DNA of 63,992 bases, filler included, from Stramenopiles sp. TOSAG23-3 (Eukaryota), in assembly GCA_900128585.1 (NCBI GenBank). It is 17 parts of 17 records of this genome, joined end to end, with 100 filler letters (N's around TTAATTAATTAA, not from the genome) between each part and the next. Parts side by side here need not be neighbours in the genome. Positions count along the whole stretch, not along the records: positions 2,259 to 4,415 come from LT645030.1; positions 4,516 to 6,669 come from LT645031.1; positions 6,770 to 8,922 come from LT645032.1; positions 9,023 to 11,169 come from LT645033.1; positions 11,270 to 13,416 come from LT645034.1; positions 13,517 to 15,660 come from LT645035.1; positions 15,761 to 17,903 come from LT645036.1; positions 18,004 to 20,146 come from LT645037.1; 9 more parts are not named here. One strand, 5' to 3'. The translations under genes and the position numbers were made by a program. Positions 3,136 to 60,777 of the stretch are shown here, in pieces. The notes beneath the pieces are model-generated. The model saw nothing but the letters and a program-made list of their open reading frames with translations. It made no database searches and was not told the DNA's origin. Numbering within the stretch: the first letter of the stretch is position 1; every line of letters starts with the position of its first letter.

Positions 3136-3388
3136 TGGCCTCAAGCGCCATCACCGTGGCCGTTGATGCATTGTTTAGTTTAGTCGGCGACATAACCAAT
3201 TTATAAAATATCTCATATCATACATAGGATAAACGAAAAATTGGCTGTTATTTAAGATATAGTATGTTAATATATATATAAAATGTAAATCAACGCAATA
3301 ATGGCTTAAGTTGTTAGCAATACTTTTAAAGTACTCTTTTAGTTTGTTGAGTGCAATACTCCTGTTACGGACATATGTAAATGCCTAG

Positions 3389-3463
3389 AGGTAGTATTTG
3401 ATTTAAAATGAGAGTTTTAAAATGAGAGTCTTAAACATACACTATATATTTTGGTTTTTTTTT
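3389..3463 (+). mobile_element. Family C T-tailed insertion (75 nt) with 13-bp TSD
   Basis: TGTAAATGCCTAG at 3376-3388 and 3464-3476 flanks ...GAGAGTCTTAAACATACACTATATATTTTGG(T)n. Confidence 0.75.
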
Positions 3464-3621
3464 TGTAAATGCCTAGTATCGTCTCACGCAAGCGGTTCAC
3501 ACAATATATAGAATATTAGCGCTGTTTTATTCTCTTCATTTCACTGATAACTTTTATATTAACGCCCAGTACAAAATTATACACGCACTCTAATAAAATA
3601 CAAAAACTGCCCGTCAACGTT

Positions 3622-4077
3622 TCAGTTTTCACCACACGCATCGTCGTTACACGCATCGTCGTTACACGCATCGTCGTTACACGCATCGTCGGTGCACTGC
3701 CTTTTACTATTATCTGGTCTATCGCTTGGACCATCACTATCGTAAGGCCGTTTTTTCGTTGACTGTCCACTTGCTGCATTTTCAAGTATATCACACTGCT
3801 CTTGATATTCTTCATACCTATCAAGCATAAAATTATGGTATTCCTGGATTTTATTAATAGTATGGGCAACGCCAACATCTTCCTGCAACGCTTCAATAAA
3901 TTCTTCGTGGCACTGAATAAATTCCTCTACTAAACCCGCATGGAAGGCTTCTCGTTTCTTTTCCTCATCAGTAAGAATGACGGTGCACCCACTATGAAAC
4001 TGTTGAAAGTCATTGGCCAGAGCCGTAGAAAACGGCACTGTTGGATTGGTATTCTCCGTCGGTCCAATTCTTTGCAT
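3622..4077 (-). CDS. Hypothetical acidic protein ending in DDACN repeats
   Basis: 151-aa ORF. A 15-nt tandem repeat ACACGCATCGTCGTT (3634-3691) encodes about four DDACN units. Confidence 0.45.
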   Translation of the reverse strand: MQRIGPTENTNPTVPFSTALANDFQQFHSGCTVILTDEEKKREAFHAGLVEEFIQCHEEFIEALQEDVGVAHTINKIQEYHNFMLDRYEEYQEQCDILENAASGQSTKKRPYDSDGPSDRPDNSKRQCTDDACNDDACNDDACNDDACGEN

Positions 4078-4577
4078 ACGTTCTGTTCGGGTTACTCCGC
4101 AGGATATTATTATTGGATTTTGTGTGCTAATTCTGACAGAGTTTCACAATTGAAGCATCATTGTTTGAAATATGGAAGATAAAGACAAATGGTAGACCCA
4201 AAAATACAAAAACAACAACTCTTCTTCTCTTGCTTCTTCTTTCTGTATAATACTTTGGTGGTTGTTTTATCTCCTTCCTCTCGTCGTCGTCTCCTCCTCC
4301 GTCCTCCTCATCAAAAAAAACAAAAAATAATAATATTGCGACTATATTTTGAAGAAAATATATAAGTTTATTACGGATGAAGCGACGTTGAGAGATAGGT
4401 ATTAGCATACAATACNNNNNNNNNNNNNNNNNNNNNNNNNNNNNNNNNNNNNNNNNNNNTTAATTAATTAANNNNNNNNNNNNNNNNNNNNNNNNNNNNN
4501 NNNNNNNNNNNNNNNCTGTGGTGCTTCAAGTCAATAATACGAAGAAGTGTTTAAGAAGAAGAAAGGGATGAATTTGT

Positions 4578-4579
<2 letters not shown>

Positions 4580-4617
<38 letters not shown>

Positions 4618-4618
4618 A
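4580..4618. repeat. (GAAA)n microsatellite
   Basis: About 9 tandem GAAA units upstream of the ankyrin-like gene. Confidence 0.9.
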
Positions 4619-5258: not shown

Positions 5259-6314
5259 ATGAGCAACACTCCCCCTCCCCAGTTTGACACTTCAAAGTAC
5301 TCGAAACTTGCTGTTGCTAAGTACCGTCAGCGTCGCAAGGCTGCTGGGTCAAACCGTGAATCCATTGTACCTTCAGCAACGGGTGGTCTGCCGAGCGGCA
5401 CGGCAGACGATGCAGACGATGCAGACGACGGCTGGGCGAAGAACGGGGATGAAATAGTCCTCGAAAATTTAAGGAGTGCAAAAGCGTTCCGATTTGACGA
5501 TTGGAACAAGAGTGCTGATCTTGTGGACGCGGCGATTGAAGATGAGATGGAGGCGGTGCAGGCCATATATCTGGACAATAATCTTCACATCGATGCTGCT
5601 CTGGGGCGGTTGCAAAATTTTACGATTGTCCACTTGTCCAGCTATTTTGGTGCCCTTCGGTGCCTGAAGTGGGCACTTGCGCAGGGAGGGTCCACAGTGG
5701 TAGTCAACAATGCGGGTCGAAACGCATGTTGGTACGCCAACATGAACAAATCCATGGAATCAAAGATCCAGAAAGAGTTGGGGCTCACCTACCTCTCCCG
5801 CATGCCGGCAGTTAAAAACGGTGTTACTATGGAAGCGTTGGAAGGCCCGTTCAATAGACTGAGCATGCAGAACAATCTCCGGCGTCGATTCGAAGAGCTC
5901 CAAACGTATCAATCCTTGCACCTGGACAAAGACCCCATCCCGCCCGCCCTGGCCGAGGAGTTCTTTGCTGCAATCGCGAAAGACGACGACGTACAGTTTG
6001 ACAAGTTGTTGACCGAGAACAACATTGACATTAATGCGCCAATCATGAACCCCTCCAAGATCTGCAGACGGACTTATTTGCTGCATGAAGTGTACAAAGT
6101 GGGACCTTACAACAAGAAGATCCTGGGGTACTACACCACACGGTACAATATTTTTAATGTCGACCCTGTGCGGCCTACAAGTGAAATGAAGAAACGCGAA
6201 ACGAAACAAGCGGGGCCAAAGGTCATATTGAACCTTGTCGATGGGCACGGGCGAGAAGCGAGCTGGTACTCCTCGCTAGAGTACCTCGAGCTTGCCGTTC
6301 TTGCGCAGAGTTGA
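5259..6314 (+). CDS. Ankyrin-repeat-like protein
   Basis: 351-aa ORF. TIVHLSSYFGALRCLKWALAQGG...NNAGRNACWYA and a second degenerate ankyrin-like block (LNLVDGHGREASWY). Confidence 0.65.
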   Translation: MSNTPPPQFDTSKYSKLAVAKYRQRRKAAGSNRESIVPSATGGLPSGTADDADDADDGWAKNGDEIVLENLRSAKAFRFDDWNKSADLVDAAIEDEMEAVQAIYLDNNLHIDAALGRLQNFTIVHLSSYFGALRCLKWALAQGGSTVVVNNAGRNACWYANMNKSMESKIQKELGLTYLSRMPAVKNGVTMEALEGPFNRLSMQNNLRRRFEELQTYQSLHLDKDPIPPALAEEFFAAIAKDDDVQFDKLLTENNIDINAPIMNPSKICRRTYLLHEVYKVGPYNKKILGYYTTRYNIFNVDPVRPTSEMKKRETKQAGPKVILNLVDGHGREASWYSSLEYLELAVLAQS

Positions 6315-6770
6315 TTCGCGTTTGGGTGCGTGTTGTTGTTGGAGCTGGTGGGCTGCCGCAGCGCAGCGTTTTCTCAGCTTGGAAAAAAAAAAACCTAATT
6401 CAGTTTTCCAGCTTGAAAGAACATTCGAGGTTCACATTCCTTCATGAACTGCGAACTTATCTTTGCTCTTGTGGGTTTACTAAATCGATATAAGTACCCT
6501 TTTTAGCAACAAAAAGATTAAAAACAAGAAAATTGGCTGTTATTTAAGTAATTAAATTTAGCTTCCTAATACCCTAATCCTAGCTTGATTCTGTAATTTT
6601 GTTTCGTTGTTGGTTGTCAATTGTCAATCACCGAGGGGATGATATAATTTCCAATGAATAATTTAAAGANNNNNNNNNNNNNNNNNNNNNNNNNNNNNNN
6701 NNNNNNNNNNNNNTTAATTAATTAANNNNNNNNNNNNNNNNNNNNNNNNNNNNNNNNNNNNNNNNNNNNT

Positions 6771-9629: not shown

Positions 9630-9851
9630 AAGTTAAGTCTGAGAAATACTTTTGATTCAAAAATTGAAACGGCAGGAGAGTCAAGTGTCAGACAGATGAT
9701 GTCTGTTGTAATTGTTGCGTTTTAATATTTTAAAAAAAAGTACGCGTAACTTCGGAATGATAGAATATTAATCTCTTTTACCAAAAAAAAAAATGCATAA
9801 TTTTTAAGTAAGCGTACGTATGATAACAAAAAGCAATAGAGTCAAAAAATA

Positions 9852-10173
9852 AAAGCGAAAAATTGGCTGTTAATTTAAGTAGTTAAAATTTATCGTCTTC
9901 ATATACTGCGAACTTATCTCTGCTCCTGAGATTTTACTAATCAATATACCCTTGTCACTTACTCTTAACTAAAACAAGAAAAATTGGCTGTTACTCTTAA
10001 CTATCATTCTCATGTGTACTCCATGCATGATCCGAATCGGTATGTCGATTTGCGTCGAAGTCAAAAGACCCGTAGTCAACTTCCTCATCCGATGTCTCAC
10101 TCGTAAATATGAACCTCAGTCGGTTCCTTGTGTGATTTTCCGAGCAGTGGCGTGAATGTTTTAAAGGTGCTCT
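9852..10173 (-). mobile_element. Family A T-tailed element, long 5'-truncated copy with nested 19-nt A insertion
   Basis: Homologous to 26268-26545. Retains ORF end RAPLK...DEEVDY...TDSDHAWSTHENDS* (10173-9997). Nested mini-copy 9972-9990 lies between TTACTCTTAACTA duplicates. Confidence 0.75.
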
Positions 10174-11169: not shown

Positions 11170-11391
11170 NNNNNNNNNNNNNNNNNNNNNNNNNNNNNNN
11201 NNNNNNNNNNNNNTTAATTAATTAANNNNNNNNNNNNNNNNNNNNNNNNNNNNNNNNNNNNNNNNNNNNACGACTTGGACGCCGCCGGAAGAAACCTCCC
11301 GGCTGGTGGGTTTTCGTCGTTGAAATTTCTGACCTTGGTTGTGGCAGTATTTTGTCTATAAAATTGTTTTAGAAATCATTATATAGTGTTT

Positions 11392-11530
11392 AAGCACAAG
11401 AAAATTGGCTGCTATTTAAGTAATTTTTAATTAATGTACTGGGAACTGAAATCTATCTTTGCTCTTTTGGTCTTATGATACTAATCGAGATACCCTTGTC
11501 ACTTAGTATTGACTATCATTCTCAGATGTA
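11392..11530 (-). mobile_element. Family A T-tailed element copy (~140 nt)
   Basis: Reverse complement of the 26410-26545 unit (TACCCTTGTCACTTAGTATTGACTATCATTCTCA; AAAATTGGCTG end). Confidence 0.75.
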
Positions 11531-15198: not shown

Positions 15199-15324
15199 TT
15201 CTTAAATTTCTTAACAAAGTATGAAAACGGGCTGGGGGTAACACTTTAATCCTATTAAACATTCGCCCGCATTTTTGGTAAATTGTTTTTTATACGCTCT
15301 CATTTTCACTCAATATTAAAATTA

Positions 15325-15468
15325 AAAACAAGAAAATTGGCTGTTATTTTTGCGAACAAGAAAATATATAAAAAAGAAAAAAGATGGTGTCAGTTCAAGA
15401 ACAATATCTCCTCCTATTGCAGATCCTCCCCTAGTTCTGGTCAAGATTCCAATTGATTGGTCTTAAAA
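15325..15468 (-). mobile_element. Family B element (distinct body, family-A-type 3' tail)
   Basis: GTGTCAGTTCAAGAACAATATCTCCTCCTATTGCAGATCCTCCCC...CAAGATTCCAATTGATTGGTCTT is shared with 20360-20435 (rc) and 31295-31328. Confidence 0.65.
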
Positions 15469-15761
15469 GTACACAGCGGCATAAATGTTTTAAAGGGACT
15501 CGTTGTCTGTGGTACTGCTCAATGAAATAATAATCGGTATTGAGTTTGATCGTTTCCTGTTCGTATACACATACAGATGTAAGTGTACCAATATTTAAAA
15601 ACAAAAAATTGGCTGTTAATTAAGTAAATATTTAAAACAAAAAATTGGCTGTTATTTAAANNNNNNNNNNNNNNNNNNNNNNNNNNNNNNNNNNNNNNNN
15701 NNNNTTAATTAATTAANNNNNNNNNNNNNNNNNNNNNNNNNNNNNNNNNNNNNNNNNNNNC

Positions 15762-16325: not shown

Positions 16326-16693
16326 GCGCCCGCTGGTTCAAGGAACTTTGGGAGAAAATAGGAAGAAATTTCAGGGAATCGTAACGGCCATTCCCCTGCC
16401 GCGCGCGCTGTCTGAGCGTGCCCATAGTACCGTGTTTTGGGAACTAAATGGTTTTCGTATTGTATGCGCAAAACTGATCCCCCCAAGCACGATGTTTTTA
16501 AAAAGTTATTCGAGGTTTAGCCCGTGATATTATGTTTGTTCTGTTGTTCAGTTGACGACGGGGCCGATCGACACGAGAGTGAGAGAATATTGTTGTGGTG
16601 CAGGTGTGGTAAACTTATAATGTACTCAAGTTTAAAAAAACAAATTATATAGTTAATGAGTATGAAAAAAAACAAAATTATGATAGTATGTAA

Positions 16694-16714
16694 AAAACAA
16701 ATTATATAGTATGT
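16694..16714 (-). mobile_element. Family C micro-insertion (21 nt) with 13-bp TSD
   Basis: TGATAGTATGTAA at 16681-16693 and 16715-16727 flanks AAAACAAATTATATAGTATGT. Further C-like ends at ~16634 and ~16665. Confidence 0.65.
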
Positions 16715-16853
16715 TGATAGTATGTAATAAGTATGACCCAAGTAAATCTCCGACATGTATGAAGTAATAATTTTTTGGTAAATTTACACTCTCGTATACC
16801 GCGCGATACTTCGTAATTATACCTCGTACTAATGTATGTAAGAAACGGTCGGG

Positions 16854-20359: not shown

Positions 20360-20496
20360 TAAGACCAATCAATTGGAATCTTGAACTTGGGGAGGATCTG
20401 CAATAGGAGGAGATATTGTTCTTGAACTGACACCCCTTCTTTTTTCTTTAATTTTAATTACTATAAAATAACAGCCAATTTTTCTTGTTGTTTTTT
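20360..20496 (+). mobile_element. Family B element, followed by an inverted family A end (20508-20535)
   Basis: Body is the reverse complement of 15387-15468 and ends AATAACAGCCAATTTTTCTTGTTGTTTTTT. Confidence 0.65.
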
Positions 20497-20801
20497 AAAT
20501 TACTTAATAAAAAAACAAGAAAATTGGCTGTTGTTATTTAATTACTTGTATTACTTGTTAGACTAATACATGTACTGTACCGTACATATAAGCAGCAAGG
20601 AGAATCAAATAATTCAAAAAACGTTATTATACGAAGTATAAAATATAACAACTATCTACGAAGTAAATAATGAAAAAATTAAATCACTCATCTATCGATT
20701 TTAGTTTGACTGAATGTTTTGATTAAGACCATAAAAATGTTCGTTTGGCCAACGCCTGAATAATATAATTCAAGGAAAGAAGTTGCGCCGTTTCAATTTG
20801 A

Positions 20802-21194: not shown

Positions 21195-21282
21195 CTAATT
21201 AATTAAACGAGTTTGTCAAATTTAAAAATCGCATCTTAAGAAACCTTTTTTCATATATTTTATAATAACTTGTTCATTATTT

Positions 21283-21335
21283 CAGTTCGCAGTACATTAA
21301 TTTTAATTACTTAAATAACAGCCAATTTTCTTGTT
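21283..21335 (+). mobile_element. Family A insertion (53 nt) with 10-bp TSD
   Basis: TTCATTATTT at 21273-21282 and 21336-21345 flanks CAGTTCGCAGTACATTAATTTTAATTACTTAAATAACAGCCAATTTTCTTGTT. Confidence 0.75.
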
Positions 21336-26158: not shown

Positions 26159-26545
26159 AGCAGGACGAGATCCCAAACGGCACTTCAACGAATCCCACAC
26201 AACGACCCTCCTCCGACACTCCAACTCACAAATGACAATCCCTTAACTGATTTACATAGCAGACAACGAGCACCTCTAAAACAATTAAGCCGCTGCTTTG
26301 ACGATCACACAAGGAACGAGCCATCTACGAGTGGAACACCGGACGAAGAAGTTGATTATAGGTCATGTGGAAGCAGTGTTAATCTATCTACTGATTCAGA
26401 CCATAAATGGAGTACATTTGAGAATGATAGTCAATACTAAGTGACAAGGGTATGTCGATTAGTCAGACCAAAAGAACAAAGATAGATTTCAGTTCGCAGT
26501 ACATTAATTTCACTTACTTAAATAACAGCCAATTTTCTTGTTTTT
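26159..26545 (+). mobile_element. Longest family A copy: 94-codon ORF remnant + 3' UTR + T-tail
   Basis: Met-less open frame 26159-26440 (...RAPLKQ...DEEVDY...TDSDHKWSTFENDSQY*), then ~105 nt ending AATAACAGCCAATTTTCTTGTTTTT. The 5' boundary upstream of 26268 is inferred from the open frame only. Confidence 0.7.
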
Positions 26546-26557
26546 AAAAAAAGTAAG

Positions 26558-26748
26558 ATCATAAATGGAGTACATCTGAGAATGATAGTCAAGACTAAGT
26601 GGCAAGGGTATATCGATTAGTAAGACCAAAAGAGCAAAGATAAGTTCGCAGTTCATGAAGGAATGTTAACCTAGAATGTCTTAATCTAGATTTCAGTTCG
26701 CAGTACATTAATTTTAATTATTTAAATAATAGCCAATTTTCTTGTTTT
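26558..26748 (+). mobile_element. Second tandem family A copy (composite) with ~12-13-bp TSD
   Basis: T(A)7GTAAG at 26545-26557 and T(A)6GTAAG at 26749-26760 flank the copy. Confidence 0.7.
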
Positions 26749-27163
26749 TAAAAAAGTAAGCTAAGCTAAATTTAAAAAACATGAAGGAATGTAAACCTTT
26801 AATGGACAAAAGGAGCAGATTCATTTTCGCGGTACATGAGAAAGCTAAATTTTAATTACTNNNNNNNNNNNNNNNNNNNNNNNNNNNNNNNNNNNNNNNN
26901 NNNNTTAATTAATTAANNNNNNNNNNNNNNNNNNNNNNNNNNNNNNNNNNNNNNNNNNNNCAAGTTGAATAAGCACAGATAATAACGAGTGATTCAGCTC
27001 TTTCTCTTGTTTGTTTTGATTTATACACTATTTCTTCCTTTGGCTGTTCGTTTGCTTCGTTCTCGTTGACGATCGCTGCCCTTTTTTCAATTTATTGCAA
27101 AGGAGCTCGTTGTTATTTATTACGTTACCGATTGCTTGAAAGGAAGGCTTGCAGTTCGGCACC

Positions 27164-28659: not shown

Positions 28660-28745
28660 ATTAGTAAACTCACAGGACAGAGATAAGTTCGCAGTACTAT
28701 GTTATGTGAATAACACTTAAACTAACAGCCAATTTTTTGTTTTTA
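28660..28745 (+). mobile_element. Diverged family A copy
   Basis: TTAGTAAACTCACAGG...GATAAGTTCGCAGTAC...TAACAGCCAATTTTTTGTTTTT. Confidence 0.6.
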
Positions 28746-28966
28746 GTTTTTTTATAAGACTCTCTGATCAATTTTCGCAGTACAGGAGGAAGATAAATTT
28801 TAATTACTTTACTTCCTTATAAATAGAACAGTCAACTTTTTCTCTTTTATCTAGACAAAACACTGCCACAAGCTAGGTCAGAAAACCCACCCGCCGGGAC
28901 GGTGCAAAAATAATATTGCGGCATATTTATTTTTAGTTTTTATTATACCAGTAAAAAAAAAGAATT

Positions 28967-29095
28967 AAAAAATAAATAAATTATATAGTATGTTTTAAGA
29001 CTCTCAAAAAAAAGAATTAAAAACAAGAAAATTGGCTGTTATTTAAGTAATTAAAATTAATGTACTGCGAACTGAAAACTGAAAACTGAAATCTA
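28967..29095 (-). mobile_element. Family C insertion (28967-29005, 13-bp TSD) abutting a family A copy (29019-29095)
   Basis: AAAAAAAAGAATT at 28954-28966 and 29006-29018. The A copy runs into the contig end. Confidence 0.7.
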
Positions 29096-29833: not shown

Positions 29834-31198
29834 ATGAAGCACTATAGGTTTGGGAAGCGAAAGGCTCCAAAGAGACGGCGAAAGCAGCCTGGGGAAGTTG
29901 CAGTCCCGCCAACTTCGCCATCGTCACAAGGTTCCAGCTCGGAGCCGTCTAGTCCTATGTCAGCGCCGGTGACGGACGGGGAGGTATGGGAGAAGAAGTC
30001 CAATCGGAAGGGGTTCACCTATTTTGTAAACAGAGTCACGGGCGATACGGTTTGGGAAAAGCCAAATGAAACTGCGGTGGAAGGCGGCAACCCCGAGGGT
30101 GGCAACAGCAACGTGTGGGACGAGTGGGCGAAGAATGGATTGGAACAATCGAAACAGGTTTGGGAGTCTTACACGGACGAAGTTTCAGGGCACGAGTATT
30201 ACCACAACCCAATAACCGGGGAAAATACCTGGGTAATGCCCGGTGACGCCACGGTGGTGCCTGGGATACGCGAAGATACGACGGGGAACAGTGCGGCCGG
30301 CGGCGAGGCACGGGGCAGGGTTGGAGACTGGGAGCTATGCTATGACAAGGACGGGACCCCATACTATTACAATTTTAAGACGGAGGAAAGTGCATGGGAC
30401 CTACCCTCCCAGAAACAAGGTAGCCGAAACCGTTCGAAAAGGAACAAAAGGTCGACAGCGGACGGATCATTCACTAGCGATTCTGAATACTCGGATGATT
30501 CTGACAGTTCGTACGAAGATCTGGAAGGGGGGGACGTTATGGAGAAATTGAGAAAGTCTGCCGTCGAACTGGGCAGCAAAGCAAGTGATATAGTCAATCG
30601 AGTGGGCCCACAAGCGAAAGATATTGGGGAAAAGGCGTGGAATTTTTCAAAGGAACAGGGCTCATGGGTAGCATCTGCAAGCGCCGCAGGAGTGACGTCA
30701 TTGTGGGGGTGGATGTCGAGAGTCGCGAGTAGAGAAAATTTAGAGTGGGTTCAGGAAGGATCCATTTCTGTTGTCAGTAGCATTCAAGACTGGGTTGACG
30801 AAGTCGCAGTCGATCCGGATGCAGGAGTAGAACAATTGGTCAATTCGGCGTCTAAACATGGAGAAGAAACTGTTGGGTGGATGCTGGGGCATAAAAAGGA
30901 GGACACGCCGTTTGATGCAAACGGCGAAGCGGACGATATCGAAAACAACATCAACAAGGAAAATAAAGAAAAACAGAAATACGCTCAAATAACGTTTAAG
31001 CCCTCTGATATAGAAAGTGCAAAAGTTGGGTCTGACCTGGGTGCAGAGAGCGACACTCCCGTGGAACCGATAGGAAAAGTCGTACAGGAAGTAGCGAAAG
31101 AGCACGGGAACTTTCAAGCAAAGAAGCTCGGCAATAGTATAGATGAAATCAGCGCACGAATCAAAGGGATGGACCCAGCTGCGAGTTTATCTAAATAA
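29834..31198 (+). CDS. Triple WW-domain protein
   Basis: WEKK...TYFVNRVTGDTVWEKP, WESY...EYYHNPITGENTWVMP, WELC...PYYYNFKTEESAWDLP. Confidence 0.88.
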   Translation: MKHYRFGKRKAPKRRRKQPGEVAVPPTSPSSQGSSSEPSSPMSAPVTDGEVWEKKSNRKGFTYFVNRVTGDTVWEKPNETAVEGGNPEGGNSNVWDEWAKNGLEQSKQVWESYTDEVSGHEYYHNPITGENTWVMPGDATVVPGIREDTTGNSAAGGEARGRVGDWELCYDKDGTPYYYNFKTEESAWDLPSQKQGSRNRSKRNKRSTADGSFTSDSEYSDDSDSSYEDLEGGDVMEKLRKSAVELGSKASDIVNRVGPQAKDIGEKAWNFSKEQGSWVASASAAGVTSLWGWMSRVASRENLEWVQEGSISVVSSIQDWVDEVAVDPDAGVEQLVNSASKHGEETVGWMLGHKKEDTPFDANGEADDIENNINKENKEKQKYAQITFKPSDIESAKVGSDLGAESDTPVEPIGKVVQEVAKEHGNFQAKKLGNSIDEISARIKGMDPAASLSK

Positions 31199-31328
31199 AA
31201 ACAAGAAAATTGGCTGTTATTTAAAAGTAATTAAATAAAACAAGAAAAGTTGGCTGTTATTTTTTATAGTAATTAAAATTAAAGAAAAAAAGAAGGTGTC
31301 AGTTCAAGAACAATGTCTCCTCCTATTG
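31197..31328 (-). mobile_element. Tandem family A mini-copy + family B copy at the WW-gene stop codon
   Basis: AAAAACAAGAAAATTGGCTGTTATTT begins within the TAA. A second tail at 31237 leads into the B body. Confidence 0.7.
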
Positions 31329-35566: not shown

Positions 35567-35907
35567 ACTATTGTATTATTATATTTTAAAATTATTATAC
35601 CTGTACAGCGTACAAATATTAATACTAAATAATCCAACTCCGATTTGTTTTTACTCTGTCGGACAACACAAACAATAAGAGCTAATAGCAGGGAAAATAG
35701 TCCAAGCGCTAAATGTGATCATAATGATGAGTTTTTTTCAAGTCGTATACATAAACCTGCGTAAATGTATTTTCTGAAGATCCAAGTCTACTAANNNNNN
35801 NNNNNNNNNNNNNNNNNNNNNNNNNNNNNNNNNNNNNNTTAATTAATTAANNNNNNNNNNNNNNNNNNNNNNNNNNNNNNNNNNNNNNNNNNNNTATATA
35901 TATATAG

Positions 35908-35958
35908 TAAAATTGGCTGTTATATTTTAAAAAAACAAATTATATGGCTGTTATATTT
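35908..35958 (-). mobile_element. Family A end interrupted by a 17-nt family C micro-insertion (14-bp TSD)
   Basis: TGGCTGTTATATTT at 35914-35927 and 35945-35958 flanks TAAAAAAACAAATTATA. Confidence 0.65.
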
Positions 35959-36108
35959 ATAACATATTGATTGCAGTTGGCGCGCGGCGTAAGTCAAAAA
36001 ATTAAATTGTTTTTAATCACTTGTGCCGATACGCGCTTGTACGAATATAATTTAGGTCACCTTCCCGGTGCTTCCTTTTCTCTGTACCGCCTCTCCCGAA
36101 ATATTTTT

Positions 36109-39528: not shown

Positions 39529-39608
<80 letters not shown>

Positions 39609-42139: not shown

Positions 42140-42230
42140 ACGAAATGGAGATCCTGGGGGGGAGGGGATTAAATAATTTTTTTATGGTAAAATTAAACGT
42201 ATACATTACATTCATCTCCATTATTTTATT

Positions 42231-42254
42231 ATAACAGCCAATTTTCTTGTTTTT
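42231..42254 (+). mobile_element. Family A 3'-end micro-copy
   Basis: ATAACAGCCAATTTTCTTGTTTTT in a convergent spacer; no clear TSD. Confidence 0.6.
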
Positions 42255-42689
42255 AAGTGCCTAAAATTGCAGACAATAAATTTTGTTGTTGCGAAGTACC
42301 ACGTAACCAGTAAACAGCGGCTCGCTACACCAATCTAAATTAAAAAAAGAGAAAACAGAGAGAGGCTTTCGTCGCATGCTTCTCTTCCTCTGCTGCATCG
42401 TATAGGTCTTGGGCTTTTTGTGTAATCGCACATGGCCATGGATCTTCAGATTTGCAGCAGCAGCAGCGCACACCACGGTCGCCAATGACGCGCCAACTTT
42501 TTCTTGTTACCGTGATGTGCAGAAGATGAATTAGCCCATACATATTACTCTCTGCTGGCTATATCTAAAAATATTTTTAAAAAACTAATTATATATCATA
42601 GTATGTTCTTAAAATATTAATATTATAGTCCAGTTGTTTTTTAATTTTAAAAAAATAAAAATCTCTGTCTATGCATACTTACTCTCAAC

Positions 42690-49568: not shown

Positions 49569-49631
49569 AAAAGAGTAACCCCTCTCTCCCCCATTTCCAT
49601 CTTACTTCCACACACATCAATTCTCTCAATT

Positions 49632-51546: not shown

Positions 51547-53044
51547 TTAATTCTTAGATCTCAGCGCTCCTTTATCTGTTGCCTTACGAACGTTCTTTCT
51601 TCCTTTCGATTGTCCCATTTTACTGTTTTCGCCTTGAGGCTTTTTGTTCCGGAGTGCTTTTTGCTTTTCTTTTAAATCTTTTGCGCGTTGCTTTGCTTGA
51701 TCTTTCTTGTCCGCAATTGTACGTCAACGGGGAGTTGTATTTCGCTTTCCATGCCTGCAAGGATTTCAAGAGCTCGGCATTGATCTTTGGTAGCAGCTTT
51801 TTCGCCCGGGCCCTAATTTTCTCTTCCTCTTGCAATCGTTTGAACGCGTCTCTTCCTCGGCTGTTCAATCGATCGGCACCGGCGCCAGTCTCTTCGCGCC
51901 GTTCTAAATCGTCTCGGTCGCCGATAATCTTCTCTCGCTTGTTGATGTTTTTCATGATGGGCCTCATGTGCTCCGCCCGCTGCTCAAGCTCTTCCAGGTA
52001 CGCCTCGTGTTCGTCCAGCACGGTTTCGTTCAAGGCGTCGTCTTCCTTGTACATTTTTGAAAACGCCTTTCTTTCGCTTTCGCAGAAGTGCAGCTCGTCC
52101 CAGAGCACGAGAATCTGGTTCCTGGTGCTGTGGACGAGGGGAATCAGCCGTTCTTTCTTGACCACTTTCAGCCGCTCCAGTTCTTTTTCACACGCCGAAA
52201 TTTCTTTCAACCCCACCCCATGGTGCTGTGAAAAGAAAGCAGACCGCTCCTCATCGGGGACGCTGAGCTTTTCCCAAAGCTCGTTGATTTCTGAAGCAAG
52301 CTGTGTAATCTGGGTCTCGCGCTCCGCTTTGGAATTTTGAAGCTCGGCGGACCGGTTGGACAGGGCGCTCAAGTCAGAAATCGTAACGCCTATTTCTTCC
52401 CCTCCGTTCATGATGGCTACGTCGATTTCAGATTCACACTTCATGTCCAGCTCAAACATCAAATTCTTCAACTCATTGACCAGCTTTGAACGTGCTGCTA
52501 CACGATTTCCCAATTCTGTCTGAAGCTCTGCAATGTGATCGTTCAGCTCCTTTTCTCGGTTGTCGGTCAAGTCCTTTCCAACCTCTTGAAAGGGTTCCGA
52601 TACGACCGATCCCAGGGTCTCGGAAAGGTGGTTAATCAACTCTACCTTTTCGTTCAAGGCGTCAAAGCGCTCTTTGTGGCGCTTTCGTGTGTCCATCAAT
52701 TCAATATCTAAGCGATTGACGCTCTGTGTCAGAGTTTCTATATCAATTTTTCCGTCGGCAATAACTTGGCTGCCAAGCTGCGCCGACAAATCTGCTATCT
52801 CGGCGACTGCCTCGGCAATGCGAGTTTTGTACTGTTCGCTTAACTCCTTTTCTTCATCGAGAACATTTTTAATCACACCATGGACATCCTGGTACAATTG
52901 CTCCAAAATCTTTTGTCGGTCAGTGCTACCGAGGCCAACCACGTCCCAGAGCTTGTGAAGCTCGCTCTCCACGGACGTCAAGTTATCTGTAATACTGCTG
53001 TGCTCATTCTGTGCCGCCTGTTCGTTTTCTGCTAGTGCGCTCAT
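51547..53044 (-). CDS. PRC1: PRC1/MAP65/ASE1 microtubule bundler, frameshifted near C-terminus (~51716-51721)
   Basis: ELHKLWDVVG, INELWEKL, ELERL, DRLNSRG, LQEEEKIR...KLLPKI...W. A +1 frame continuation gives a 57-aa coiled-coil tail to TAA at 51547-51549. Confidence 0.85.
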
Positions 53045-53783
53045 ACTTACTGCCGGGGATCTCGTGTGAAGGGTTTAACTTGTTGCACAAAAATAGTTTG
53101 AATGCCTTCAATATGGAAATTAATGTATGCTTTTGTTTAAGAATTATTCTTTCTGCACACGTTGAATAAAAATTTCTAATTGCATCTATCATTTCAGAAC
53201 AGAAACGGAGAAGAAAGCTTTTCATGAAATGCGTTCCTCGTTGTCGTTTTCTTTTTTTTCTTTCTTCTTTTTCTTCTTCTTCTTCTTTTCTTCGCGCAAA
53301 TCATAATAATAATAATAATAGTCTAATAAAAATAAAATCAAGTTTTATTCAATGTTGTGTTCCTTGTAGAGATTCTTAGAAAATATTTTTTTTTGATTGA
53401 TGGAGGAGAGGAGGACGACGGCGGCATTGTGCGTGTGTTCGTTTCTTTCTTTTTTTTATTTTTATTTAATTCTTGATACTATTTACCTTATAAAAATAAA
53501 TAAATTATTGACTCACCCAAAAAAGTGTACAACACCTTCCTTTTGTAAACTAACAAAAGCAAAAGAAGAAGAAGAAAATAAAAACTTGGAAATTTAAAAT
53601 GTAAATAATATGTTGTAAAATAAAACTTTGCTTCATCAGAGACTACGTATCATCGAGAAGAAGAAGAAGAAGAAATAGAATAGAATAGAATAGACGACTA
53701 CGGTAGCTAAAAGTCGTCTAGTTTTAAAATAGACGACGAATATATTAAAATAGAATAGGAATAGAATAGGAATAGAATTCACC

Positions 53784-53861
53784 CAGAAGAAAGAAGAAAG
53801 AAGAAAGAAGAAAGAAGAAAGAAGAAAGAAGAAAGAAGAAAGAAGAAAGAAGAAAGAAGAA
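53784..53861. repeat. (AGAAGAA)n heptamer repeat
   Basis: About 11 tandem units in a divergent spacer. Confidence 0.9.
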
Positions 53862-54519
53862 TTTTTAATATTTTAGTATTATATTACGGTATCGTACCAG
53901 GTACTTCGAACAGCTAACGTTCACTTCTTCTTCATGCGTTTCTTCTGATAAAATTAAATAATTTTATTTAAAGATTTTTTATTTTTCTAGACGACCTCCT
54001 CGTAGAACCGACTTATAATTATTTTTTGTATTCTTTTTTCCTATAATAGTCTTACTGTAAGAATACAAAAAAAGAAATATTTCTTTTTTTTTGATGATGA
54101 AAATGTAACCGAAGTGGAGAAGGCCCTTCCCCCTTCTTCTCTTCTCTTCTTCTTTTCTAATATAATAATAATACATTATACCTAAAATAATAACAAAAAT
54201 TCGCAAAAAATAATAATATTTTTACTATCGGTTTGTTTTTGCTTTATCATGCTGTGCTTATGTTAGTTGAAGAAGAGTTACGATGAATGATGATGATGGG
54301 CAAAAAAAAAAAGGGGGAAGTAGTACGTAGGTAGTAGAAGAAAGAAGAAACTTTATTTTCAGAAAAAACACAGGTGTTATTATAATTGTTTCATTCCAAT
54401 TCAGCAATTATACGTGCATTCAATTAATTATACATCAAAACAAAGTAAATACTCTTTTTAAACAGCTGGGCTCTTTTAATTAGATATTCTCTAACTGTGA
54501 CCGGAGCGGTTAAAAGATT

Positions 54520-57117
54520 ATGTCGTTTGCACCCCCGAAAGCTGGTCCAACGGAACCGGCCGTCCCGGCAAAGGGCAGCGCTGAAATTGATCTGAAACCA
54601 GGGCCAGACTCGGAGCCCTCGAACATGCTCCCCAGTGTTGCCGGGCGCGACGAATTGCCTACCGTGAAAGAGAACGAACCTTTGCCAGATAAAAATGACG
54701 AAGAGATCGTGCTAACGGAACACAATGTCCACCCCAACGCTACCGCGTCAGATGGAAAAGCGGCTGCACCCCCTTCTTACTCACCAGACCCAGCCCTAAG
54801 AGTTGAATACACAGATAGATTGCTCCAAGAATACAACCGCTTACAGCAACAGAATGAAGGTGTTGTTTCGTTAGAGTTAGTAGCCGATGCAATACAGTAT
54901 AGTGAAAGTTTGTTACAGTCATTGCAAGACTGCGCGCAGTGGGACTCCAGGAGTAGGTTCGAAACATATAGAGACGTCTACGTTGCCCTTCACATGGAAA
55001 AAGATGAGCAACGAGGGTCATCAAAAAGCGCGGGGCAGGACCACAGCTTGTCGTTTGAAGAATTCCAGAGTATTTTTCCCGGTCCAAAAGCGTCTGCACC
55101 AAACATAGCGCCAATGGAGCAAAAACAAAGGACCCCAACCCCCGAAGAGCTTGAAGACGTGGAAGGCCAATTTTCCAAAGACAAACGTTTGATTGGAAGA
55201 CTCGCCGCTGTGCCTAGAAAAGAAATCCCAAAGCATTCGCTACGCGATCGCATCCGTGAAGCGCATTCGTCTGGCATTCTGCACTTGAGCGGTTGTGGCC
55301 TGAAATATTTTCCGGGGGACGGAGAGTTTGTTCATTATCTAAGGCAAGTGAAAGTCCTCTCTCTCAGTCGAAACCAGCTTACCTCGCTTCCCTCCGAGCT
55401 TGCGTACCTCCCGCACGTAGAGCACCTTAATTTGTCGTCGAACCTTTTAGAGAAACTTCCAGGATCCATAAGCAGTATGACCCATCTTAAATCTTTGGAC
55501 GTGTCGAACAATGCACTGCAATTTTTGCCCCCTGAGCTTGGAAACCTGAAAAACATTGAAATTCTTTGTGCAAACAAGAATCAAATTCAGTCGCTTCCCT
55601 ATAGTCTTGGAAAACTTAAGACCTTGCACCGTTTCGACATGAAAGGGAACCCTATGTACCCAGTGTTGTGGGACAAGTACAACGACGGTTTGCCTACGCT
55701 TTTGTCATTTTTGCAGGCCATTTCAACGTGCGTTCACGAAGCCAGAATTTTGGGGAACTCGCCGTACGGAGTATTGGAAACGGAAGAGGACATTTTTAAA
55801 AATGAGCAGGTGTTGTCGCAGGCAGATTTTGGAATGGTGGGGACTGTTGTTGACACCCGGAGAGAGATTATCAACAATAGGTTAAACTCTGCACGGGAGA
55901 CGAAATCGTTAACGCTAGAGTACATAAATTTGGTGGAAGTTTCGGATGAAATGGTCGTTCCAGACGTTATCAGCCTTCAGCTGTCTCACAATAAGCGATT
56001 AACGGAAATGCCTGAGAACATAAAGCAGTTTCCTCACCTGGTGCGCCTTAGTGTAAAGAAATGTGGGATCCAGAGTATCTCCGAAAGTTGTGGCTTGGGC
56101 AATTTGTTGCAGCTAGAGTCGCTGGATATTTCTTCCAACCAACTAGAGATTCTCCCGGGAGGCACGTTTGCGAATTTGCAAAACTTAAAACTGCTAGACG
56201 TCTCTGGAAACAAACTGGTGCGCCTTCCAATAGAATTGTCTCGCTTAAAGTCTTTGAAGACCTTTCTTTTTCACGGAAACCCTTTGCCAAATTTGGCTGG
56301 GCTCAGGGCTTTGGTCAGGGAATCGGGAATACCTGGAATCCAATCCGAAATTGTGGCTCGGGCAAAAGGGTACGTTTCAACAGTAGACACGGAAGACATT
56401 GAAAGAAGCACACTTTCAAAGCGTTATGATCTCGCGGACTATACTAGCGTTCTGGATTTAAGTTCATGCGGTCTGGCGACGGTTCCTGATGAAGCCGTCG
56501 CATCAAAATATTACGGAAAGTTGACGGAGATTATATTGGCGCGCAATCAAGTCCAGAAAATGCCTGACAAGATGGCAAACATGTACCGGCTCAGACGGCT
56601 TGATATAAGTCGGAACGACCTGAGCAACTACGGTCTTCCCGCAGAAATGATGAATTTGAAGTCTTTGGTTCAGCTCGACATCAGCCACAACCGCTTTGAG
56701 GAATTTCCTACCGTGATCCTAGAATTTAACTTGCTTCGAAGTTTGAATATTTCGCACAATAAAATGAAGGCAGTTCCATTGGATTTGCGCAACTTGAAAA
56801 AGCTCGAATTTTTGGCTATCGAAGGGAACCCTCTTCCTAAGAATTTCACGCAAGAACTCAGAAAAGGGATTTTGGATTTTATGGAACTGTTGGAGAACCT
56901 TGCTGAGAAATTACCGCCCGCGGATCCTCTCTTGAAAGTTAAGAGAATCACAGAAATGCCCAAAACTTCGCTCCTAGGAAATACCAGATCTGCACTTTCG
57001 CCCGTGGCTGCAGGAGAAGACCCGCCTGTAGACAGGCGTCAGCAGGAAAGTCCGCAAAAAAACAAGTACGTATATAATGCACCAAAAGGGGGGGGGGAAG
57101 TAAGTGTACATAAATAA
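54520..57117 (+). CDS. Leucine-rich-repeat protein (three LRR blocks)
   Basis: Repeated LxxLxLSxNxLxxLP units, each block capped by GNP. 865 aa. Confidence 0.92.
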   Translation: MSFAPPKAGPTEPAVPAKGSAEIDLKPGPDSEPSNMLPSVAGRDELPTVKENEPLPDKNDEEIVLTEHNVHPNATASDGKAAAPPSYSPDPALRVEYTDRLLQEYNRLQQQNEGVVSLELVADAIQYSESLLQSLQDCAQWDSRSRFETYRDVYVALHMEKDEQRGSSKSAGQDHSLSFEEFQSIFPGPKASAPNIAPMEQKQRTPTPEELEDVEGQFSKDKRLIGRLAAVPRKEIPKHSLRDRIREAHSSGILHLSGCGLKYFPGDGEFVHYLRQVKVLSLSRNQLTSLPSELAYLPHVEHLNLSSNLLEKLPGSISSMTHLKSLDVSNNALQFLPPELGNLKNIEILCANKNQIQSLPYSLGKLKTLHRFDMKGNPMYPVLWDKYNDGLPTLLSFLQAISTCVHEARILGNSPYGVLETEEDIFKNEQVLSQADFGMVGTVVDTRREIINNRLNSARETKSLTLEYINLVEVSDEMVVPDVISLQLSHNKRLTEMPENIKQFPHLVRLSVKKCGIQSISESCGLGNLLQLESLDISSNQLEILPGGTFANLQNLKLLDVSGNKLVRLPIELSRLKSLKTFLFHGNPLPNLAGLRALVRESGIPGIQSEIVARAKGYVSTVDTEDIERSTLSKRYDLADYTSVLDLSSCGLATVPDEAVASKYYGKLTEIILARNQVQKMPDKMANMYRLRRLDISRNDLSNYGLPAEMMNLKSLVQLDISHNRFEEFPTVILEFNLLRSLNISHNKMKAVPLDLRNLKKLEFLAIEGNPLPKNFTQELRKGILDFMELLENLAEKLPPADPLLKVKRITEMPKTSLLGNTRSALSPVAAGEDPPVDRRQQESPQKNKYVYNAPKGGGEVSVHK

Positions 57118-57279
57118 AATTTAAAAAAATTATATTACATAAATATATCACGGTCAGGACGACGAGAGAGAACGTACGAAGTAACTGATATTAATTGTTT
57201 AGTGTGTTCTTACTTCAGTTTAAAAACAAAATATTGGCTGTGTACTTAATCTTAACTTATGTAGAAACTCTTTTTGTAC

Positions 57280-58465
57280 TTATATTTGATCGTCTGACAA
57301 GTTTGTTCGTATACCGTAACGACCGGCAAGTCTTCCTGTCTTGTAAAAGGTGACAACTCCATCATTCTCACGAGAGAAATGACAGTTCTCGCCGTGGGCG
57401 GCAAAANNNNNNNNNNNNNNNNNNNNNNNNNNNNNNNNNNNNNNNNNNNNNNNNNNNNNNNNNNNNNNNNNNNNNNNNNNNNNNNNNNNNNNNNNNNNNN
57501 NNNNNNNTGACAACTCCATCATTCTCACGAGAGAAATGACAGTTCTCGCCGTGGGCGGCAAAAAGTTCAGTTGCAATACTCTTCAAGGTTGTCTCACTCT
57601 TGCCATCACAAATAAAATCAAATGTATTTTTTCGGGATCGAGAATTCGACGGGTTTTTCCTGCTTTTGCTTCGTGGAGTTTTCTTTGAAGGGTTTTTTTT
57701 CGGTGTCGACGCTCTGCTCTTTTTCCTCTTTTTCGATGTCGGCGCTCTGCTCTTTTTCGGTGTCGGCGCTCTGCTCTTTTTTGGTGCCGGCGCGATGCCC
57801 TTTTTGTTGTACCTTGGCGTTCGTTCTGCCGATTCAACCCACATCATAAAAAGGTAGTTTATAACAAGCACCACAGCAAAGAATGGATCGAACTGGAGAA
57901 GGTTCCTCATGGCCACGATTGTCATTATGGAACCAATGTATTGCGGGTCTGATATACCTAAATTATATGGGAATCCATTTACCCACGGCACCTGCTCGCC
58001 GAAACGAACCCCGTAGTACGTTCCGGTGGTTCCTAGTGCGGAGTACACCCCTGCATTCAGTGCTTGCCCAGCTATCAGCAAGCAAACGTCCGACAGTGTG
58101 GTGAAAACAAAAAATTCGACTTCGTGGGTATGCAATAGCTTGTACGTATCATCCGTCATGAATTGGTTCCAGATAGATGCGGCATAAGATGGAGCGGACA
58201 CATTTCCTGCTAATAAAATAGTCCCAAAGAGCACGATTTTCAGACCATGGGCTACGTGGCTCATGAGTTTCGATGGTGTCCAACTCGTTCTTGCTGCAAT
58301 CTCACACCAGGAACCGGGAAACTGCCACAACCAAAAGTAGTAAATCGATGGCAACGAAAGCAGCAAAACATGTAGAACATTGATAGACCCTTGTTCAGTT
58401 CGTAAACCTGATACAAGTGGGGATACATAGTGTTCTTTTAACATCGAAATAAATTCTTGAATCAT
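57280..58465 (-). CDS. Phospholipid N-methyltransferase (PEMT/plant PLMT-like) with basic C-terminal tail; spans a false N gap
   Basis: GQALNAGVYSALGTTGTYYGVRFG..VPWVNGFPY....DPQYIGS. 57351-57406 duplicates 57508-57563 across the N run, so the ORF continues to TAA at 57280. Confidence 0.85.
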
Positions 58466-59426
58466 TTTTTCGTACTCGTGAATCAGTTCAAAATGTTCTC
58501 CTTGCGTATCTTTCAGCGCCTAGTAGTTCAGGTTCCGTTTGTCTTCCAGAGTTCCTACTCGCGTATGACTTCGATGTGTTGATCTATCAATTTATCTGAG
58601 TTGACAACATGTCAATAAGTTCTATGATTGGATGGACGGACGAAATTTTGCTGCGCTGCTGAGATTTTTTTTTTTTTTTCTTCAGAATTCAGAAGATGAT
58701 TAATTATTAGTCGTTCTATATTTATTTTCATGTACCTCATATTATACAATGTGACACAGCATCAAAATACTTTGACAAAAAGTCTGAAAACAAGACTGTG
58801 TTCCTGTAGTAATACTTATAACAACACTGTGTTCATGTATTAATACAATTAAAAGAATCGTATATTATATTTATTATAGGCGACTAACCCTAGTATACGA
58901 GGAGTCGTACATTTAAAAAAATTAGCTCATCCAATGTACATAAATATGCCGAATATTATAATTTAAATAAAATATAATAACGGCTCAATCATCAGCTCAT
59001 CGAATATATTATACGAGGAAAATAATAAAAGCAAGAAGAAGAAGAAGACAGACGGTTCTTCCGGATATAAAATACGCGTAATATACGTAGCGCATGTGTT
59101 GGTGTGGTGTGGTGTGGTGAAGAAGATTTTTTTTTGCGCATTTTTTTTTTTTTTACATCATCAACAAGAACAAAGGAACGGCAAGAAGAGGTTTGGTGGG
59201 AGGAAAATATTATTATTATTATTATTTATTATTATTTTTATTATAATAAAAAAAAATGAGTTTATTTTTATTTGTTTGTTTTTATTTACCGTACCACTGT
59301 TTGTATAAATGGAAACTACGTGCTGTTTGTTAATAAAATGTTAAATGTTAGCGTCAAACAATGAAATAAATTTGGATTTTCACATGGTATGTCACGCAAG
59401 GATTCTTAGGAGAAGAGTACGAAGCC

Positions 59427-60459
59427 ATGAAGAAAAAACAAAACGGTAAAAAGAAGAAACCGCAAAAGAAGGGTGGTAAATTAGAGAAAGGGAAGGCGGG
59501 CCGTGGGAAAGGGAAAGGGAAAGGCGGAAGCGAGGGTGGTAGTAGTGAAGAGGGTGCCGAGATACCGCCACTATTAACAGATAAAACATTTTCTCAGCTT
59601 TCGACAGTAAAGTCTTCTCCGTGTTTTTCTTTTGGGTCGTTGAATACTCTAAATAGTGCAAAAACTCAAAAAATTATACAAGAACATAGGAAAAAGAAAA
59701 TCTCCCCCGGCGCTCTAACGTATTCGGCGGGTGTGCAAAAGTACTTCCAGATCGGAAGAACAGCCCGCGCGGCAACTTTTGGTAAGTTTGGTACCATGTT
59801 TCTCTCCTCCGACGCTTGCTGTTACTAACTCTTTCATTATTATTTTTTCGCAAACCCAAGGTGCAACACGAAAGCCAAGAAAGCAATTTCTGGAGACTAT
59901 AGCAAAGTTGAAGGACGGTCGGCCTGGCCCGACAAGCTATACGGACGGAACGGCCAAATATTTTCGATTTGGGGGGAAAAATGGGACCATCTTTGACTCC
60001 ACGTATAGTTCTGTAAAAACGTCCAGGTTCGGTCCCGGTCTGCTTGAGAGTATGCAGAAGCAGACCAGGCCAAAAACAGCTCCGCTTAGAGGAGAGAGAC
60101 GAAGACAGCAAATGCTTCAGTACACGTTGCCGAATACGAGAGAGCGCCTCGAGCACTCGCAGAAAAGATCGACGACGGCTGCGAATAGTGAGGGGCAAAA
60201 AGTACAAACGGATACTTTTCAAAGAGCACCCTCATTTGTTTTCGGTCCTGGTTTTGGGAAGGCTGAGAGTAAAAGCAAGATAAAGAAACAACCGCTGTCA
60301 AGTAGCACATACCGAACAAAATTTGGGATCAAAGCGAAGAACAAAGGAGCGTTCGCCCCCCCCACCTCCCTCAATGCGAAACAATTGGAACGATTAAGGA
60401 AAGTCCTTGGTAAAGACCAGTTTGGACATGGCAATTTTCTTGCCAATCATGTCAAATAA
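59427..60459 (+). CDS. ODF3/SHIPPO-repeat-like protein, 2 exons (intron 59782-59860)
   Basis: SPCFSFG, SPGALTY, PGPTSY and APSFVFG motifs. A 79-nt GTAAGT...TACTAAC...AAG intron restores the frame (ATFG|ATRK). Confidence 0.72.
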
Positions 60460-60585
60460 TTTTCTACGCGCGCTGAATGTCTTAAGACGTGTGGTCTTAA
60501 ATATTGCTGTTGTATAAAATTGGTAATTCTTATAATTTTTACATAAAAAGAAATGTAAACGACATACTCAAAATATATATAAGAA

Positions 60586-60638
60586 ATAACATACTATATA
60601 ATTTGTTTTTTAGAAATAACAGCCAATTTTCTTGTTTT
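60586..60638 (+). mobile_element. Family A micro-copy with nested family C micro-copy
   Basis: Outer TSD TATATAAGAA (60576-60585, 60639-60648). Inner TSD AGAAATAACA (60582-60591, 60612-60621) around TACTATATAATTTGTTTTTT. Confidence 0.7.
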
Positions 60639-60777
60639 TATATAAGAATTCTCAATCTTACGTAAGTAACATATCTTGTTTCTTTACGAAAAGTGCCAAA
60701 AAGTGTGTGCAAAATATGCGGGGCTTCTCCCGAAGCAAAAAGGTGGTCTCCGATTGATCTTTAACAATATACGGACT

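Follow-up and report, generated by a model that had tools for sequence, protein, structure and literature searches.

A new family of short, T-tailed retroposons, probably SINE-like, in the gene 3' flanks of Stramenopiles sp. TOSAG23-3

A new family of retroposons was found in 63,992 nucleotides of DNA from Stramenopiles sp. TOSAG23-3 (GenBank assembly GCA_900128585.1), a stretch that is called the window here. The family is real; the way it moves is of a known type, and what is unusual is the abundance of tiny copies. The copies probably represent a small, non-coding, non-autonomous family resembling short interspersed nuclear elements (SINEs), about 345 nt at full length and inserted by target-primed reverse transcription (TPRT). 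A TPRT-like insertion that passes through RNA had been proposed in a first-pass annotation made from the sequence alone, and it is supported by one fixed end, variable 5' ends, an excess of target-site duplications (TSDs), microhomology at the 5' junctions, and both nested and absent alleles. What we infer is the enzyme, together with the RNA intermediate and the U-tail of that RNA.

The family is recognised by a 19-nt motif, CAGCCAATTTTCTTGTTTT, which occurs 11 times in the window at up to 2 mismatches, while shuffled sequences gave a mean of 0.01 and none of 100 shuffles reached 11. With up to 4 mismatches allowed, the core was found at all 21 positions listed in the first-pass annotation. 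Metagenome contigs were scanned by exact pattern, which yielded at least 120 stretches (848 kb) with at least 186 copies; all metagenome-based counts given here are of the matches listed. These stretches share only repeats with the window and no unique DNA. The motif had no occurrence in viral contigs, and no earlier description of the string was found in the literature searched. The pooled set contains 197 copies at up to 2 mismatches, 11 from the window and 186 from the metagenome (120 loci). TSD statistics use 183 of them, with 14 left out for N's or short flanks.

A logo of the 197 copies, anchored on the right, is sharp on its 3' side and graded on its 5' side, which agrees with the earlier description of one fixed end and one variable end. 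Conservation is 93-100% at the core positions. Towards the 3' end it drops to 67% for T and 69% for A and is at background within 3 nt, and on the 5' side conservation declines from above 85% (AAATAA) to about 50-60% at -10 to -21 and to background by -25. In 85 of 183 copies the T-run that follows CTTG has 5 T's and in 54 it has 4 (range 1-10), and the base 3' of it is A in 153 of 183. About 45 nt of tail are shared, ending in ..ATAACAGCCAATTTTCTTG and then 4-5 T, and the bodies joined to this tail differ among several sub-families. The copy at 15319-15589, which has one such body, shows 91.8-92.9% identity over 266-273 nt to sequences at four metagenome loci (L022, L080, L092 and L106).

Duplication of the target site was measured as the longest exact repeat shared by the 3' flank of a copy and the 350 nt upstream. 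An exact repeat of at least 10 bp flanks 59 of 183 copies (32%), and one of at least 11 bp flanks 43 (23.5%). When each copy was paired with another copy's flank, the values were 5.6% and 2.9%. At 299 AT-rich T5A sites lying at least 400 nt from any copy, they were 7.4% (22/299) and 4.0%. The excess over the two controls is 4-6-fold, so the comparison with random AT-rich sites that had been set in advance as a possible refutation came out in favour of insertion. Within the window, the nine flanking direct repeats reported earlier are all present and exact, with lengths of 10-18 bp (Table 1). Four of these pairs (at 3376, 16681, 28954 and 60582) do not flank family A, the family with the motif above; what they enclose is a relative whose tail differs, ..ACATACTATATAATTTGTTTTTT. 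The pair at 35914/35945 is itself element sequence, a micro-copy within another micro-copy.

The 59 inserts bounded by TSDs form a continuum from 15 to 335 nt, with TSDs of 10-17 bp. There are 18 of at most 25 nt, 17 of 28-55 nt, 8 of 60-134 nt and 16 of 149-335 nt. In total, 35 of the 59 measure at most 55 nt. Examples are locus L115, where 21 nt are inserted with a 17-bp TSD, and L017, with an insert of 25 nt and a TSD of 15 bp. Merging three pairs of rows from overlapping loci left 54 unique TSD sites, at which the TSD begins with T in 80%, with A in 20% and never with C or G, in a calling scheme that lets tail T's count as TSD and so biases its first base towards T. T-first TSDs are expected if a U-run pairs with the A-run of the nicked strand. 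At least six target sites lie directly behind the T-run of an older copy.

The 5' junctions also carry microhomology. For 17 stubs whose 5' break falls in the known tail, the end of the TSD was compared with the element bases immediately 5' of that break. The mean microhomology was 2.29 nt, against 0.80 +/- 0.33 when permuted, and a mean this high arose in 1 of 2000 permutations.

Sites without the insertion were also sought. The 19-nt stub at 9972-9990, with its 13-bp TSD, interrupts a long copy, and the paralogues at 26.4 kb and 11.5 kb are uninterrupted; these serve as a paralogous empty site. A second case comes from two different assemblies, L088 and L115, whose flanks are about 99% identical. 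Only L115 has a 21-nt stub between identical 17-bp repeats, and L088 has at the same site 13 nt that resemble one repeat. The overlap among the metagenome loci is only 25.5 kb, and a megablast pass over it gave no copy-sized indel; the L088/L115 case was found by a second approach. Smaller differences were seen as well: an 8-bp sequence, TATCATAT, is present in one and absent from the other of two overlapping assemblies (L011 and L093, aligned column 1172), and insertions like TATCATA/ATGATA also occur within the tails of several copies. Among sequencing-run contigs, most break at repeats, and the joints listed between 42253-42256 and 60590-60614 are all repeat-to-repeat. Contigs of DNA runs X2, X3 and X4 and of RNA run X15 on 42000-61990 show no joint across any copy.

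The length of the element was estimated from a blast search of 26100-26550 against all sequences, in which about 11 matches begin at 26191-26203; this common start gives a full length of about 345 nt. One insert of 335 nt with a 12-bp TSD (L029) comes close to it. Other starts cluster at 26483, 26504-26506 and 26514-26522, and these are in part junctions of other sub-family bodies with the shared tail. An alignment of 10 long copies shows a strongly conserved central block, with pairwise differences of 22-25% in the body against 38% in the stretch before the tail. A coding element was considered and rejected: one reading frame stays open in most full-length copies, but variation is the same at all three codon positions (0.25/0.25/0.23), so the element is taken to be non-coding. 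The open frame of the window's full-length copy is also in frame with the upstream open reading frame (ORF) 24746-26158, from which one TAA and 7 codons separate it; this continuity is taken as chance because the element has no codon bias. In its length, its lack of coding content and its defined 5' end, the element agrees with SINEs, which measure about 80-500 nt. The consensus of the long copies has only weak A/B-box-like strings, seen by eye.

A possible course of insertion is as follows. An endonuclease would nick the bottom strand where the top strand has a T-run followed by A. The freed 3' A-run would pair with a U-run at the RNA 3' end, or with one chosen as that end, and would prime cDNA synthesis. 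Synthesis would mostly halt, or jump to the other end of the target, after 15-55 nt, aided by a few bases of microhomology, and a staggered second nick 10-18 bp away would leave the TSD. Targets nearly all lie in the AT-rich 3' flanks of genes, often directly behind an older copy's tail, and in this way tandem and nested clusters are built up. The short products fit the idea that the enzyme "aborts almost at once", and they fit just as well an early jump to another template at a microhomology. The T-run tail and the T-first TSDs had been thought unusual, but both have a precedent in plant Au-like SINEs, as described in parts of PMC6007223. Our best guess for the enzyme, a tentative one, is an RTE-like long interspersed nuclear element (LINE) of the APE type.

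Several results weigh against this account, among them the search for the enzyme. A LINE-like reverse transcriptase (RT) had been assumed to stand behind the copies, and none was encountered. The 295 locus proteins and 35 window proteins were compared with Pfam, in three of the scans at E <= 1e-12, a threshold at which weak matches could escape. No RT or LINE endonuclease was detected in 289 of the 290 locus ORFs of at least 300 aa (848 kb), in the 35 window ORFs or in the 84 ORFs of at least 250 aa that end within 600 nt upstream of a same-strand copy. No multi-copy protein family was present among the 290 locus ORFs. The sole Exo_endo_phos match (E 2.8e-15) is a 493-aa ORF at L057 2756-4234, with a copy just downstream and no adjoining RT, and this is probably a host enzyme. 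Because LINEs are seldom contained in short-read metagenome contigs, the absence of an RT is weak evidence. A partner RT element would be recognisable by the tail of about 45 nt or by the end string ..TTGTTTTT.

Other points against it come from the element and its sites. Neither a tRNA nor a 5S or 7SL head was detected by ARAGORN, or by Rfam on the window at gathering threshold and on 26150-26800 at E <= 10, and the full-length copy in 26150-26800 has no Rfam family at gathering threshold or at E <= 10. A 3' hairpin (AACAG/CUUGUU) was tried and rejected, as folding gives a minimum free energy of 0 kcal/mol and a z-score of +2.0, worse than shuffles; with no stable fold in the tail, a hairpin recognition signal of the kind used by some LINE/SINE pairs is not evident. 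The tail contains two internal T4 runs, which would halt RNA polymerase III unless the organism requires T5. At 124 of 183 copies an exact repeat of at least 10 bp is missing. The T-stretch near -10 reported for RTE-related SINEs is not clear at the 54 TSD sites, where T at -10 upstream of the TSD is 43% against a background of about 35-40%, and mild T peaks of 52-57% lie at -2 to -4 and at -7, with a slight excess also at -8. As for empty sites, there are 2-3 substitutions and an indel of 4 nt between that of L088 and the L115 TSD, and contigs of marine DNA runs X2, X3 and X4 on 42000-61990 contain no empty-site allele. The copy at 42235 is bridged by a 6108-nt contig of run X3 and so is present in that population.

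Retroposition of the same kind might instead be carried out by an RT other than an APE-type LINE, either a Penelope-like element with a GIY-YIG nuclease or an RT acting at nicks or breaks in gene 3' ends. Penelope-like elements have TSDs of variable length, are 5'-truncated and lack a poly(A) tail. No LINE was found in the ORFs scanned, and head-to-tail tandems are common, making up 28 of the 49 neighbouring copy pairs less than 1 kb apart (12 others are divergent and 9 convergent, with no fixed spacing). This alternative nevertheless seems unlikely, as no RT of any type was seen, neither a hammerhead nor any other Rfam family matched the window or the full-length copy, and the T-first TSDs and T-run tail fit the RTE signature published in parts of PMC6007223. 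A more speculative scheme, to which we give about as little credence, is a "terminator-seeking" retroposon. Its enzyme would be recruited to, or just tolerated in, T-run/A-rich zones about 130 nt past stop codons, and would prime on an internal or terminal U-run, and a 15-55-nt stub would be the normal product in place of a full copy; stubs might be kept because they help to end transcription between packed genes. The RT could then belong to a type that has so far had no link with the mobilisation of SINEs, since no LINE was seen.

Copies are placed very unevenly with respect to genes. Of the 186 locus copies, 110 lie between two called ORFs, 1 is inside an ORF and 75 are at contig edges. Convergent intergenic regions hold 81 copies against 31.9 expected, tandem regions 26 against 48.2 and divergent regions 3 against 29.9, and all 26 copies between tandem genes are in the half nearest the upstream gene's stop codon. 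In total 159 of 186 copies lie within 800 nt downstream of a stop codon, at a median of 131 nt, and 68 have the same orientation as the nearest gene and 91 the opposite one. In the window, the copy at 31193-31237 adjoins the stop codon of ORF 29834-31198. The earlier picture of insertions scattered through the genome has to be narrowed, as nearly all copies are confined to gene 3' flanks. A preference for T-run/A targets, selection against hits in promoters, or both would explain this bias, and a strand-specific signal would not.

The same placement, together with the AAATAA and T-run within the tail, could mean that the motif is not mobile but serves the 3' ends of genes, as a terminator or as a signal for 3' processing kept by selection; in a milder form, the stubs would be kept because they work as one. 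We regard this as very unlikely. TSDs, nesting and the presence/absence case indicate insertion, the orientation is mixed, the tail has no stable hairpin, and contigs from RNA continue across the motif, with loose ends at 42256 and 60644-60645. The chance that the motif is a terminal inverted repeat of a miniature inverted-repeat transposable element (MITE) or other DNA transposon, or the end of a Helitron, is slighter still. There are a few inverted pairs, such as 20473(+)/20520(-), and Helitron copies may have one end in common while the other varies. However, inverted pairs number 21 against 28 in tandem, without fixed spacing, TSD length varies from 10 to 18 bp, and inserts of 15-25 nt carry one end only; Helitrons make no TSD, and TSDs are present here. 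Local duplication, slippage or break-repair filler in AT-rich DNA, with no dedicated element, can practically be dismissed, for although the flanks are AT-rich and of low complexity and the 15605/15641 pair reads equally well as a 36-bp tandem duplication, the same 19-24 nt are inserted at well over 100 unrelated places and the direct repeats exceed those of both controls, including the matched T5A sites.

Table 1. Copies of the family and exact direct repeat pairs in the window
Feature	Position	Strand	Remarks
Full-length copy, ~350 nt	26197..26546	+	Conserved body, tail ..TTACTTAAATAACAGCCAATTTTCTTGTTTTT; from blast starts and alignment; no Rfam family
Copy of ~190 nt, head-to-tail behind full-length copy	26560..26750	+	Flanks AAAAAA(A)GTAAG, ~26546-26558 / 26750-26761
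Additional partial copy	26772..26860	+	Ended by contig edge
Long copy, ~300 nt	9846..10172	-	Contains nested 19-nt micro-copy 9972-9990
TSD of nested micro-copy 9972-9990	9959-9971 / 9991-10003		13 bp, TAGTTAAGAGTAA
Copy of 142 nt	11389..11530	-	Diverged tail ..CTTGTGCTT
Copy of 53 nt	21283..21335	+	10-bp TSD TTCATTATTT, 21273-21282 / 21336-21345
Family-A stub, 23 nt	60586..60638	+	TSD TATATAAGAA, 60576-60585 / 60639-60648
Family-B stub, 20 nt, nested in the 60586-60638 A stub	60592-60611		TSD AGAAATAACA, 60582-60591 / 60612-60621
Short copy, core 42231-42255	42204..42256	+	Between 3' ends of two convergent genes; no TSD of at least 8 bp found
Copy of 43 nt	6518..6560	-	~200 nt downstream of stop of ORF 5259-6314
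Copy of ~270 nt, sub-family with different body	15319..15589	-	Body ..GTTCTTGAACTGACACC.., same tail
Two stubs 36 bp apart	15592..15660	-	Variant tail CAGCCAATTTTTTGTTTT; second ended by contig edge; could be two insertions or one tandem duplication
Tail-to-tail copy pair	20440..20553	+ / -	20440-20500 (+), 20506-20553 (-)
Diverged copy	28700..28746	+	Tail CAGCCAATTTTTTGTTTTT
Family-A copy 29015-29095	28954..29095	-	Ended by contig edge
Family-B insert, 34 nt, directly behind tail of 29015-29095 copy	28972-29005		18-bp TSD TTTTTAATTCTTTTTTTT
Two tandem copies, 31193-31237 and 31238-31328	31193..31328	-	Second ended by contig edge
Chimeric A/B stubs, scaffold start	35895..35975	-	16-nt B-tail stub nested in A stub; 14-bp repeat 35914/35945
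Family-B-like insert 3389-3463, 75 nt	3376..3476	+	Long T-run tail; 13-bp TSD TGTAAATGCCTAG
Degenerate family-A stub	3228..3260	-	..ATAACAGCCAATTTTTCGTTTA
Family-B stub 16694-16714, 21 nt	16681..16727	-	13-bp TSD TTACATACTATCA
Degenerate stub	57216..57246	-	CAGCCAATATTTTGTTTTT, 4 mismatches to core
Exact repeat pair	3376/3464		13 bp
Exact repeat pair	9959/9991		13 bp
Exact repeat pair	16681/16715		13 bp
Exact repeat pair	21273/21336		10 bp
Exact repeat pair	26541/26745		11 bp
Exact repeat pair	28954/29006		18 bp
Exact repeat pair	35914/35945		14 bp
Exact repeat pair	60576/60639		10 bp
Exact repeat pair	60582/60612		10 bp

The relative called family B, with the tail ..AAAACATACTATATAATTTGTTTT, is nearly palindromic, so that its reverse complement fits the same pattern, and it has just ..TTGTTTT(T) in common with family A. 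Its stubs at 16694-16714, 28972-29005, 60592-60611 and 3389-3463 are 20-75 nt long with TSDs of 10-18 bp. A further short interspersed repeat lies at 49516-49571; the summed contig depth in its bin comes to about 1012 in run X2, where unique DNA has about 7, and many joints between repeats lead from it to the copies at 60.6 kb. The other self-matches of the window are simple-sequence or low-complexity DNA, at 29196-29524 (for example (TTTC)n at 29196), 37462-37666, 39487-39657 and 53547-53886. Two of the metagenome matches stand on contigs labelled prokaryotic. The one at L122 3550-3700 is a typical copy on a contig labelled as a Dehalococcoidia metagenome-assembled genome, which suggests a mis-binned eukaryotic contig, and the one at L121 6663-6683 is GC-rich, has no flanking tail and looks like a chance 21-mer.

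The window is a composite. Positions 1-35894 are 16 contigs sorted by size, 2133-2158 bp each, and a 28-kb scaffold with one 101-N gap follows. The 16 linkers (within 2159-35894) consist of 44 N, TTAATTAATTAA and 44 N. Since the first 36 kb are concatenated unplaced contigs, features on two sides of a linker are not genome neighbours. Several of the small contigs terminate within the repeat, which inflates the copy density of this part and is probably the reason these contigs stayed unplaced. The gap at 57407-57507 is an assembly artefact, as the 56 bases on either side are identical and metagenome contigs join 57350 directly to 57508.

The ORFs of the window are eukaryotic and include WD40 with DSPc and DUF952, PDE with GAF, LRR, MAP65, COG2, BCCIP, IDO and WW domains. 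They are long and uninterrupted, on both strands, at about one per 2-3 kb, in a genome that is intron-poor. ARAGORN found no tRNA gene in the window, and Rfam gave no match there at gathering threshold. Unique DNA from 40000-47000 is present in many marine metagenome runs, and related contigs encode dynein and ciliary proteins, which together point to a marine flagellated protist as the host. A homologue search with MAP65 returned 8 relatives, the closest at 94% identity.

A compact genome of an uncultured marine protist, where genes come at about one to every 2-3 kb, still bears a retroposon family that looks active. Because the copies are only 15-55 nt long, most of the family's footprint would be invisible to standard repeat annotation. 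The clean TSDs, the nesting and the location in gene 3' flanks offer a natural data set on how TPRT starts at a U-rich end, how it ends early and which sites are tolerated. They also call for caution, as short "conserved 3' motifs" of compact genomes can be retroposon stubs and not regulatory signals.

Among known systems, MITEs are likewise small, non-coding and abundant near the genes of compact genomes, but the copies here lack terminal inverted repeats, their TSDs have no set length, and they share one end only. With Penelope-like elements the family has in common variable TSDs, 5' truncation, the lack of poly(A) and frequent head-to-tail arrangement; unlike them it is a non-coding element of about 345 nt, with no GIY-YIG/RT ORF and no hammerhead in the DNA scanned. 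L1 and Alu are known for variable TSDs, 5' truncation, 5' microhomology, a homopolymer target complementary to the RNA tail and insertion into older tails, and the family resembles them in its variable TSDs, 5'-truncated copies, 5' microhomology, homopolymer target and new copies in older tails. It departs from them in having a U-run tail in place of poly(A) and a T-run/A target in place of TT/AAAA, and for the length of the element its copies are truncated much more severely. A literature search on very short TPRT insertions surfaced only L1 papers on cancer and engineering.

The closest likeness is to plant Au-like SINEs. As set out in parts of Nishiyama and Ohshima (2018, PMC6007223), these end in TTT/TTTTT and have TSDs that start with T, the RTE-clade LINE partners that mobilise them end in (GTT)n, and the T- or U-rich 3' ends of RTE-related SINEs may pair with the cleaved strand. 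The family shares with the SINEs described there a short, non-autonomous element, a T-run 3' end after a GTT-like motif and T-first TSDs. It differs from the same published elements, so far as those parts of the paper go, in that no clear T-stretch stands out some 10 nt before the TSD (n=54) and that it comes without a detected tRNA-like RNA polymerase III head or a known partner LINE. What further sets it apart from the Au-like SINEs is that its copies are mostly stubs of 15-55 nt, in a compact marine protist host, and are confined to the 3' flanks of genes.

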